NCBI GenBank assembly: GCA_951406725.2
Contig: OX597830.1
Span: forward strand, 16,740,001-16,804,000
DNA length: 64,000 bases
Origin: Octopus vulgaris
Lineage: Eukaryota
Direction: 5' to 3'
The position numbers and the translations under genes were made by a program. Positions within the stretch are counted from its first letter, which is position 1; every line of letters begins with the position of its first letter. Below, piece by piece: positions 2,391-51,510 of the stretch. Below the pieces are notes generated by a model. The model searched no databases and was not told where the DNA came from. It worked only from the letters and a program-made list of their open reading frames with translations.

Positions 2391-2643
2391 AAGTGGTTTC
2401 AAGGGATATATAATCCTGGCAGTTACCGTGTTAACTTTTAGGTCGGTTCTCAATGCTGACTATTCTCAGAGAATTTTGGTGTCAATTATCGATGCAGCTT
2501 CTTCAGGGTCCGTTGTTTGCTGCCGTTCGAAGATCATCTTCGAACGACAGCGAACAACTGTATAATAAAATTTGGATGTGTAGATCTCCGTTCTTCCGAA
2601 CTTTATTAATTTCAATAATATATATATATATATATATATATAA

Positions 2644-2684
2644 TCAGCCGAAATTGCGAGGATGATCCGGTTCTTGACTGAAGA
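2644..2684 (+). ncRNA. 3' half of permuted hammerhead family 1
   Basis: TCAGCC GAA ATTGC gaggat GATCCGG t TCTTGA CTGAAGA. Starts directly after a (TA)n tract and lacks the cleavage-site strand. Confidence 0.6.
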
Positions 2685-2779
2685 TTAGATGCTTCGAAAG
2701 ACCCGTCTGTGTTTTTTGTATCGTTTATTTGAATGTTTTGCGTTCTTTTCCCATTTTGTATTTATATATTCCGAAATAT

Positions 2780-43859: not shown

Positions 43860-43981
43860 ACGCTAAGCTTTATGAAAATAGACGAAGGCAGGTTTACGGA
43901 AATAAACAAAAGACGAAGGCAGGTGGAATACAAACAAACAATTGTATTAGTATGGCGCTCAGGAAATATAAATGAAACAAG

Positions 43982-44019
43982 TCTTTAACGTTTCGAGCCT
44001 ACGCCCTTCAACAGAAAGA
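43982..44019 (-). ncRNA. Minimal type I hammerhead variant in the PLE 3' terminal repeat
   Basis: UCUUU CUGUUGA A GGGC guag GCUC GAA ACGU U AAAGA, just downstream of the endonuclease. Confidence 0.75.
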
Positions 44020-44059
44020 TACACAGAGAAAAAAAACACAGAAAGAAGGAGAGAAAAAA

Positions 44060-45753
44060 ATATGAGTGCAAAAGCTAGCATATAAGAGCGAAGAGAGAAG
44101 ATTAATTCCTGATCACAGCGCAAACGGGAATCCGGATGGCCTCTGTGTAAGGACAAACCGAACACAGACAGGTGTTGCAAGGAGTGACCGGTGGAGCGGA
44201 AATGGCGTGAGACCGGTGTGTCGTTCGCAAGGTGGATGTCACGAAGGTGTTCCGCGAACCGGTCAGCCAAGCGGCGTCCCGTTTGTCCGATGTACAGGGA
44301 ATGGCAGAGAGAGCAAGAGACGCAATAGATAATATTGCTGGAGGTGCAGGTGAAGGAATTGATGATGCGAAAGGGTGAGGAGGGTGGTGTTGGAGAGGTA
44401 AGGGCAAGTGCGGTAACGTGGGCGGGAGCAGGGGAACGAGCCAGGTTGGGAGGTAGGGTCAGGGAAGGAGCTATGGACCAAAAGGTCTCGAAGGTTATGG
44501 GCTCGTTTGAAAGAGGGGAGGGGTCGGTTAGGGAAGAGGTGTGAAGTGGACGGGTCGGACTGGAGATGACGGAAAACCCGAAGAATGGTGCGTTGGAGAG
44601 GTAGGGTCGTGGGGTGGTAAGTGAGGGGAAAAGGGATGCGGGAGACTACAGGGCGGGTTCGGGGAGAGAGAGCAGATACACGGTCCACGGAACGTGCTCT
44701 GGCAAGGGCGGTGTGGATAGTGGTGAGGGGGTATCCACGCAGGATGAAGTGGTGAGCCATACGTTGAGACTGAGTCTCAAAGTCATGGTCGTCACTACAG
44801 AGCCTACGTAGACGGAGGAATTGGGAATAGGGGATGGAAAGCTTGGTGTGTTCTGGGTGGGAGGAAGAGAAGTTGAGGTATGAGTGTGAGTCTGTGTGTT
44901 TGTAGTGAATGGAGGTGGTAAGAGTGGAGTGAAGAATGCTAACCGAAATGTCGAGGAAGGAGACAGAGGTGTAGGAGATAGTGGAAGTGAAGTGGAGGGC
45001 TGGATGGAAAGATTGAACAAAAGAGAGGAAGGAATCTAGATGTTCACGGGAGAGTGAGGTGGCACCGATAATGTCGTCAATGTAACGACCATATAGTTCA
45101 GAGTGGGACCAGTGAAATTAGAGAATATTTGGGCCTCAACATAGCCAACGAACAGGTTCGCACAGTTGGGGCCCATTCGCGTTCCCATGGCCACTCCCGA
45201 GACCTGATGGTAGAACTCGCCCGTGAACGAGAAGCAGTTAAGAGTAAGGACAAGTTCGGCCAGACGAATGAGTGTGGAGGTGTCAGGTTCAGGGTTGGAG
45301 CGGAGGTCAAGAAAGTGTTGAAGTGCCTGCAGTCCTTCGTGGTGAGGGATAACGGTATAGAGGCTCTGAATGTCCATAGTAAAAAGGATTTTGGAGGAGC
45401 CGGGAGGAAAGGAGAAAGAGTTGAAATGCCGGAGAGCATGGTTGGTATCGTGGATGTGGGAGGGAAGAGATGCCACTAGGGGAACAAGGACACGGTCGAG
45501 GTATTTAGAGATGAGCTCCGTGGGGCAGTTACAGGCGGAGACGATGGGGCGGCCAGGGTTGTTGGGTTTGTGGATTTGGGGGAGGAAGTAAATGGTGGGG
45601 GTACGTGGGGTTCGCACAATTAGGTTGGATGCGGTGTGGGGGAGACGGAAGGACGAGATGAGGTCGCGGACAGTAGAGGATACCGTCTGTTGGTAGCTAC
45701 GTGTGGGGTTAGAGGACAGAGGGGAGTAGAAGGAGGTGTCATTGAGTTGGCGG
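44060..45753 (-). pseudogene. PLE reverse transcriptase + GIY-YIG endonuclease, several frameshifts
   Basis: YFLPQIHKPNNPGRPIVS, LFTMDIQSLYTVIPH, GVAMGTRMGPNCANLF. YIDD at 45073-45084 in a shifted frame. IIY (44325-44333) ... YIG (44286-44294) QTGRRLADRFAEH. Confidence 0.95.
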
Positions 45754-45834
<81 letters not shown>

Positions 45835-49583: not shown

Positions 49584-49726
49584 CATTCGAAGTTTTCTTT
49601 CCTCAGTCGAGTTCCAGATTATCTTTGCAATTTCGGCTGGTTATACTCGAGATTGCTCCAATCTGGCCAGCCCCAAGGAAAAACTAAGCTAAGAGCATTA
49701 GATTCCTTGGAAGAAAGCAGCGAATG
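49584..49726 (-). ncRNA. Candidate non-circularly permuted (pseudoknotted) hammerhead ribozyme, family 1
   Basis: GGCUGG-CCAGAUU-gga-GCAAU-C-UCGAGU-auaa-CCAGCC-GAA-AUUGC-aaagau-AAUCUGG-a-ACUCGA-CUGAGGA. All stems fully paired. Confidence 0.75.
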
Positions 49727-50312: not shown

Positions 50313-50488
50313 ATAGGCGCAGAAGTGGCTGTGTCGTAAGTAGCTTGCTTACCAACCACATGGTTCCGGGTTCAGTCTCACTGCGTGGCACTTTGGGCAA
50401 GTATCTTCTACTATAGCCTCGGGCCGACCAAAGCCTTGTGAGTGGATTTGGGAGACGGAAACTGAAAGAAGCCCGACCTGTATATATG

Positions 50489-50524
<36 letters not shown>

Positions 50525-50525
50525 C

Positions 50526-51081
50526 GTGTAATAAATAAAATATATGCATACATACAAACATATATGTATGTACCTACATCTACATGTATATATACATGCA
50601 TATATAAATATATATACGTGTGTACAGGACACCACAAATAGACGTAGAACTCAACGAGAAACGAAAAAGTAAAAACAGCATGGAACGGACCATTTTTTTA
50701 ACAACGAAAAAACAGAGTACAAGACAACTACACAAAGAAAAATCCCCTTCATCAGCTGTCCCTAGTTCAACTCCAGCGTGTTTCGAAGGTGAGGACAGAA
50801 CACGTCTCGTCACTGTCCTCACCTTCGAAACACGCTGGAGTTGAACTAGGGACAGCTGATGAAGGGGATTTTTCTTTGTGTAGTTGTCTTGTACTCTGTT
50901 TTTTCGTTGTTAAAAAAATGGTCCGTTCCATGCTGTTTTTACTTTTTCGTTTCTCGTTGAGTTCTACGTCTATTTGTGGTGTCCTGTACACACGTATATA
51001 TATTTATATATGCATGTATATACATGTAGATGTAGGTTCGTACATATATGTTTGTATGTACATATATTTTATTTATTACAC
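50526..51081. repeat. Long near-perfect palindrome, ~270-bp arms, 14-nt spacer (50799-50812)
   Basis: Arms are reverse complements (they give mirrored ORFs in the track). Inserted in the internal microsatellite of a SINE A. Confidence 0.97.
50744..50804 (-). ncRNA. Candidate non-circularly permuted hammerhead ribozyme, family 2
   Basis: CGUGU-U-CUGUCCU-ca-CCUUC-GAA-ACACG-(14 nt)-GGGACAG-CUGAUGA-A-GGGG. Confidence 0.7.
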
Positions 51082-51183
51082 TATTGTAAAACTGAGCGCC
51101 CTCGCGTCGATTCGATTCGATTCATTTCGTTTCGTTTCTTCTTCTTCTCTAAGGTGGTTTATATATATATATATATATGTGTG

Positions 51184-51276
<93 letters not shown>

Positions 51277-51510
51277 TTGTGTGTCTGTGTCTGTCCCCCC
51301 AACATCGCTTGACAACTGATGCTGGTGTGTTTACGTCCCCCTAAATTAGCGGTTCGGCAAAAAGAGACCGATAGAATAAGTACTAGGCTTCCAAAGAATA
51401 AGTCCCGGGGTCGATTTGCTCGACTAAAGGCGGTGCTCCAGCATGGCCGCAGTCAAATGACTTGAAACAAGTAAGAGTAAAGAGTAAAAGAGTGTGTATG
51501 TGTGTGTATT

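Follow-up and report, generated by a model that had tools for sequence, protein, structure and literature searches.

The window analysed here, a stretch of 64,000 nucleotides of the Octopus vulgaris genome (NCBI GenBank assembly GCA_951406725.2, contig OX597830.1, positions 16,740,001 to 16,804,000 of the forward strand), contains an inverted repeat of which one arm begins exactly where a hammerhead-like ribozyme is predicted to cut. Does this arm descend from an RNA that had cut itself before it was copied into DNA, and does such a cut set the 5' terminus of the element to which the arm belongs? A sequence-only reading of the locus had proposed both, with the reservation that a single junction may be a coincidence. 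Our results identify the palindrome as an ordinary two-arm insertion of a Penelope-type repeat of 765 nt. We consider it quite probable that it consists of two inverted cDNAs of this repeat placed at one cut (TA)n target, and that the right arm was copied from RNA already cut by a predicted permuted hammerhead with a split core.

Structure of the palindrome

Positions in the element are numbered from the predicted hammerhead cut, +1 being the first nucleotide 3' of it and negative positions lying upstream. The arms of the inverted repeat occupy 50526-50798 and 50813-51081, with a 14-nt spacer between them. They are 100% complementary across 210 nt (50589-50798 and 50813-51022), and the distal ~63 nt (out to 50526 and 51081) differ by two 2-nt indels and two substitutions. 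The features of the locus are as follows.

50482-50523: (TA)n left flank, the target microsatellite
50526-50812, minus strand: left arm, a copy of the element that starts at -13/-14, crosses the predicted cut and reaches +273, the short 3' end; it shows 2 differences from the family majority
50799-50812, minus strand: spacer, i.e., native upstream bases of the left arm, including a stem III strand and the GUU triplet (50799-50801)
50812: CpG-type change or untemplated base
50813-51160, plus strand: right arm, a copy of the element that starts exactly at +1 and reaches +350, the tailed 3' end
50813-50819, plus strand: stem I 3' strand, the first bases past the predicted cut; pairs with 50849-50855, with compensatory changes across families
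50822-50834, plus strand: stem II 3' strand, GAAA and stem III strand (block G); the sequences with which they pair are located upstream and not present in the right arm
50850-50870, plus strand: stem I 5' strand and CUGAUGA core (50856-50862), along with one strand of a putative additional helix IV
51082-51160, plus strand: Penelope-type tail, on the right arm only
51161-51178: (TA)n right flank, followed by (GT)n; a target duplication is not discernible

Alignment bore out the earlier statement that the arms are complementary up to 50798 and 50813, and it also accounted for the spacer. In most other genomic copies fetched, the upstream bases ...GACGAGACGTGTT precede CTGTCC; on the minus strand, the spacer agrees with these native bases at 13 of its 14 positions. 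The spacer therefore belongs to the left arm, which reaches -13, or -14 if a CpG-type change known from other copies is allowed. The right arm begins, as had been noted, with CTGTCCT at the first nucleotide 3' of the predicted cut, its first base being exactly +1, after the predicted N-U-H triplet (GUU). It continues for 79 nt beyond the palindrome into the tail of the element, and the left arm ends at the short end. The upstream strand of stem II (see below) is absent from both arms and, consequently, neither of them is a complete ribozyme.

Over 204 nt the two arms have zero private substitutions, compared with 2-13 in other inverted pairs. Both carry one rare variant, present in 3 of 106 contexts, and the differences between them are skewed toward the distal part (p 0.014; values below 0.05 were obtained for 3 of 57 copies). 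The likeness of the arms, the shared variant and the distal skew fit a young insertion, and they also fit copying from arm to arm. Repeats that we take to be SINE-like lie on both sides of the insertion, at 50313-50478 (seen twice) and 51285-51480.

A non-coding repeat with two 3' ends

The majority sequence of 16 long copies is a non-coding monomer of 765 nt, and partial tandems of it have spacings of 744-834 nt. The first 26 nt of the arm have 273 exact matches in the genome and a 29-30-nt core has 476. Copies end at either of two 3' ends, a short one at +273 and a tailed one at +350, and (TA)n usually follows. In the window palindrome the short end is carried by the left arm and the tail by the right arm. 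The fetched loci contain 37 head-to-head candidates. Thirty of them are real inverted pairs; the other seven were discarded by eye as TA-only matches. Both 3' ends were examined in 18 of the 30 real pairs, two of which were unreadable, and all 16 readable pairs combine one short with one tailed end (p 2e-6, calculated from the 61:30 ratio of the sample). A one-sided tail, an inverted truncated copy, partial tandems and a microsatellite target are Penelope-like traits, and tandem non-coding monomers with one ribozyme each are a trait of non-LTR retrozymes; the element works like a non-autonomous Penelope-type retrozyme.

An ORF scan of 270 loci of ~2.4-10 kb revealed no reverse transcriptase (RT) or GIY-YIG ORF linked to this terminus. 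One ORF, beside locus L136, was considered as belonging to a parent element and was rejected, because it is part of an unrelated LINE on the opposite strand with its own repeated 5' start. At L271:272-3900 a LINE ending in (TAA)n, presumably of the R4/Dong type, adjoins a family B copy on the opposite strand, and a second, internally deleted copy comes next. The window also holds a broken Penelope-like RT/endonuclease fragment between (TA)n tracts (~43950-45760, minus strand), in which a YIDD motif was recognized by eye; two of its pieces have no Pfam match, and its terminus is unlike that of the element studied here.

The predicted ribozyme

The blocks of the predicted ribozyme follow the order site, GAAA, CUGAUGA (i.e., S-G-C). 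A CUGAnGA and GAAA core and an N-U-H triplet (GUU, GUC, or AUC) are present in all ten representatives, and a descriptor search of the fetched DNA yielded 102 matches versus 0 in a reversed control. The GUU triplet, which the window subfamily carries, is weaker than GUC. Stem I (5-7 bp) and stem III (5 bp) can be formed in 10 out of 10 representatives and their sequences differ among families A, C, D, F, and G, although these compensatory changes come from related copies and are not independent events. The better partner predicted for stem II is a strand 22-29 nt upstream of the cut, with 5-6 pairs in seven of the ten representatives and a run of 3 in three. In this upstream pairing five out of five pairs are Watson-Crick, and the pairing changes from GAAGG/CCTTC to GGCTG/CAGCC between families. 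In families A-D the strand after CUGAnGA offers two Watson-Crick and two wobble pairs, and in F and G a run of 1. Block C, which in type SGC is uninterrupted with the stem II strand directly after CUGAnGA, is thus split, and the element does not have the make-up of a canonical type I hammerhead. A plain type SGC reading was dropped because stem II pairs better with the upstream strand. The predicted cut is unaffected by how stem II is wired, since it is placed by stems I and III. A fourth helix after A9, rich in wobble pairs, is plausible.

An Rfam scan contained no hammerhead among the 150 matches listed out of 183, which were microsatellite-driven microRNA-type matches and one snoRNA, all below the gathering score. 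The designation "family 2" used in the earlier reading is its own label and is absent from Eckert 2023 (PMC10085705). Elsewhere in the window (~49590-49690, minus strand, predicted cut before 49650) there is an intact ribozyme of the unrelated family F, which is wired in the same way and retains its upstream stem II strand. Further diverged families with unchanged block order (L130:2790-2900, L134:410-520, L230, and L145) would be useful for a wider covariation set.

Distribution of the 5' ends of genomic copies

The first 100 of 329 exact matches to a 3' anchor (+155..+179) served as an unbiased sample, which comprises 96 arms after removal of four inner tandem duplicates. The number of 5' ends per base at risk is 0.0022 (24/10801) at +25..+154, rises to 0.0166 (24/1450) at +1..+24, and is 0.0018 (2/1125) at -24..-1 and 0.0022 (12/5530) at -130..-1. 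Of the 72 arms that reach +24, 24 stop within +1..+24, i.e., ~7.5 times the per-base rate on both sides. A position scan with 24-nt windows gave +1..+24 as the best one (p 8.8e-10; 0 out of 300 simulations); this width was picked after seeing the data, and with widths of 10-40 nt the best windows start at -2 to +7 (p 8e-7 to 2e-10). Ends exactly at +1 account for 1-2 of the 72 arms, both ambiguous.

Another set of 81 rows, for which the anchor starts at +8 and which does not include the window's own arm, was tallied by eye: 22 ends fall at +7, 14 at +8, 4 at +6, 1 each at +4 and +5, 3 at +2, and 5 at +1, the remainder being 20 at -21..-2 (19 after removal of one duplicate), 3 ambiguous rows, and 8 intact or internally deleted ones. 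Two of the five rows at +1 have a 1-nt overlap, and one of these is an internal deletion. Set against 0.95 ends per base (19 ends over the 20 positions -21..-2), five ends at +1 correspond to a Poisson p of 0.003, which implies that about four in five of the +1 ends would come from the excess. With a second filter 8 out of 55 rows start at +1, the window's arm included. The main peak lies at +7/+8 (36 of the 81 rows), with further peaks at +9, +11/12 and +18-20, and additional row listings show ends at +9, +11/12 and +17..+21. Most ends are found 6-20 nt downstream of the predicted cut and exact +1 forms a minor peak. Inverted junctions at +1, blunt or with a 1-nt overlap, occur at L022 and L232, and L042 has one at +1/+2. 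At one further locus (L090, G000:C7:15647472) an internal deletion ends at -1/+1, possibly through a template jump at the cut.

The expectation that truncation points would peak at CTGTCCT was, therefore, only partly borne out: they are non-uniform and exact +1 is enriched over the upstream positions, but a single sharp +1 peak has to be rejected. As for the reservation about coincidence, the five other rows that start at +1 are more than chance would give. The zone +1..+24 has the lowest A+T content and contains zero TA or AT dinucleotides, and for that reason we reject microhomology to (TA)n as what produces the zone, though individual ends are probably displaced by it by 1-2 nt.

Family F, which is unrelated in sequence to the family of the window element, provides a replicate. 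In the first 100 of 1065 filtered rows, tallied by eye, 83 ends lie at +1..+24, 12 at -21..-1 (2 of them ambiguous with +1) and 2 at +25, with 3 internal deletions; 6 ends are exactly at +1 and the main peak is at +10/+11. Three rows resembling duplicates of one insertion were left in this tally, and the filter yields no downstream background. A scripted count on 30 loci gave 26 downstream ends versus 3 (p 3e-5). In both families, 5' ends thus pile up in the 24 nt 3' of the predicted cut. The window itself contains a further member of the pile-up (~2641-2700, plus strand), a family F copy that follows (TA)n and is truncated at +8.

It is likely that the RNA cuts itself in the animal, at a position that we predict from sequence, and that the cut RNA is copied into DNA. 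The proposal that the right arm is a cDNA of cut RNA agrees with the pile-up of ends just 3' of the predicted cut in two unrelated families, but the idea that the cut defines the element's 5' end does not hold, as 47-48 of the 72 arms in the unbiased sample read through it. From the excess over background it appears that about a quarter or more of the templates that reached the ribozyme had been cut. Roughly a quarter to a third of the copies likely owe their 5' boundary to cut RNA, usually after trimming, and most copies read through. The cut is optional, and it appears as a step with a trimmed pile-up rather than as a single peak.

Alternative explanations

The pile-up could also arise if the RT stalls or drops off in knotted, uncut RNA, the +1 of the window junction being part of that spread. 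The fold is common to both families and their main peaks occupy an equal structural place, just 5' of the stem II strand, so that shared structure could place them; in the family of the window element, -24..-20 may also pair weakly with +3..+7. However, stops are expected at the 3' edge of helices, and the strongest barriers predicted by a nested-fold proxy, which ignores pseudoknots and tertiary contacts, lie outside the zone (~+36..+43, ~+76..+83, and -26..-18) and are without excess ends. With a background rate right upstream of the predicted cut and a local peak at +1 in both families, we regard stalling as unlikely. For the window junction itself, a cDNA extending to ~-24 may have folded back onto its own +7..+1 and primed the right arm (or the arms may have been homogenized later), in which case +1 would be coincidental. 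In DNA folding, a cDNA 3' end at -24 does align with +7..+1 apart from a single bulged base, the arms show no difference across 204 nt and both carry the rare variant, and snap-back junctions occur at low frequency in R2 insertions (PMC11331408). Also, at locus L062 (G000:C1:74013343 region) the overlap of the inverted junction coincides with the 6 nt of stem I, which is what a cDNA that ends at +1 would give by folding back on its own stem I; this junction is ambiguous with a start at +9. Such priming is, nevertheless, quite unlikely: it needs two separate small deletions where two cDNAs need one base change, the tail is on the right arm with none on the left, and the junctions of L022 and L232 begin at +1 and are joined to unrelated positions (+66 and -181, respectively), where pairing cannot act. 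It also leaves the genome-wide step unexplained.

If an internal promoter started transcripts at +7..+10, the pile-up would represent transcription starts, which would suit the sharp +7/+8 peak and the internal promoter described for Penelope (PMC8557442). This is very improbable, since the step tracks the predicted cut in the unrelated family F and ends are present at +1..+6. An extra G before the ends is a sign of cap copying, and in two row listings inspected by eye there was no excess of it. The 210 nt at 100% identity might, finally, be taken for an assembly or read fold-back artefact. No independent read across the junction was present in the listed contig pieces of four runs, which is uninformative either way. 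The symmetry, however, ends at the two canonical 3' ends of the element, the arms differ distally, the flanks differ, and the 30 real inverted pairs are of like kind. An artefact, which the earlier reading had named as a condition that would undo its claim, is hardly credible.

Proposed mechanism

Under the preferred reading, that of two cDNAs at one target, a Penelope-type RT/endonuclease would act in trans and start at two internal RNA sites (+273 and +350), with each strand of one cut (TA)n target priming one of the two cDNAs. Some templates would be cut linear RNA, on which cDNA synthesis runs off at +1, with 6-20 nt usually lost on joining, and others would be uncut multimers or circles that are read through. 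The left arm of the window palindrome may thus derive from uncut or circular RNA on which synthesis stopped at -13/-14, and the right arm from cut RNA by run-off at +1 without the usual 6-20-nt loss, after which the 3' ends of both cDNAs would have been joined almost bluntly. A broader proposition is that a hammerhead core opened by a fourth helix cuts in vivo, that a single enzyme complex uses two start sites to copy two RNAs, one cut and linear and the other uncut or circular, explaining the tail and the inverted copies, and that Penelope-type ribozymes set template 5' ends; for this we see the balance as even.

Comparison with known elements

In genomes of known organisms, Eckert 2023 (PMC10085705) found no RNA of this kind except for one bacterial GCS candidate. 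The octopus motif resembles type-SGC hammerheads in the block order site-GAAA-CUGAnGA, in stems I and III and in a cut predicted by analogy, whereas its best stem II partner lies upstream of the cut, its block C is split and it resides in a high-copy animal repeat.

Published Penelope-like insertions show inverted truncated copies and a tail on one side (PMC8557442), and the anole Penelope-like protein extends each of the two target strands, starting at two sites inside the RNA (PMC11167929). Like these elements, the octopus element has inverted truncated copies and partial tandems, two 3' ends and (TA)n targets, and it may carry a tail at one end (cf. PMC8557442, PMC11167929). It differs in its non-coding 765-nt unit, in a tail of ~77-79 nt compared to 30-40 nt, and in the strict rule of one short and one tailed end per pair. 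For the anole element, ribozyme cleavage is dispensable in vitro and RNA reads ending at the site were absent (PMC11167929); it mainly uses uncut RNA, a situation that is distinct from the genomic footprint of the predicted cut observed here. The supplement of Craig 2021 (PMC8557442) includes an octopus Naiad with a (TA)n preference and "HHR_half_core".

Animal non-LTR retrozymes (PMC7229834; bioRxiv 10.64898/2026.07.22.740005) are likewise non-autonomous tandem units with one hammerhead per monomer and a proposed Penelope-like origin. Their monomers are, however, ~300 nt long with a type I ribozyme (PMC7229834), whereas the monomers here measure 765-830 nt, the ribozyme is permuted with a split core, and dispersed truncated copies dominate. 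R2 elements with a 5' HDV-like ribozyme (PMC3774820, PMC11331408) are comparable in that self-cleavage sets the RNA 5' end and junctions without target homology are imprecise and, in many cases, slightly truncated. For R2 templates that have a ribozyme at the 5' end and lack target homology, truncation within 50 nt of that end is frequent (PMC11331408), and slight truncation without target homology near the ribozyme-made 5' end is also described in PMC3774820. The ribozyme class differs, and here most templates read through the site, the cut being optional. Outside subscription journals, the literature searched contained neither a split-core hammerhead nor a genomic 5'-end pile-up at a Penelope hammerhead, although the supplements of Eckert 2023 and of the bioRxiv retrozyme paper could hold related motifs.

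Implications

The role of hammerheads in Penelope-like elements has been called unclear (Craig 2021, PMC8557442). From the step in 5' ends that two unrelated families show at the predicted cut, it appears that cut RNA serves as a template in the animal and that a hammerhead wiring which we did not find in print is active. The combination of one short and one tailed end in inverted pairs is a direct genomic test of two-strand priming. If the broader proposition above is true, Penelope-type ribozymes would gain a shown role in setting template 5' ends.
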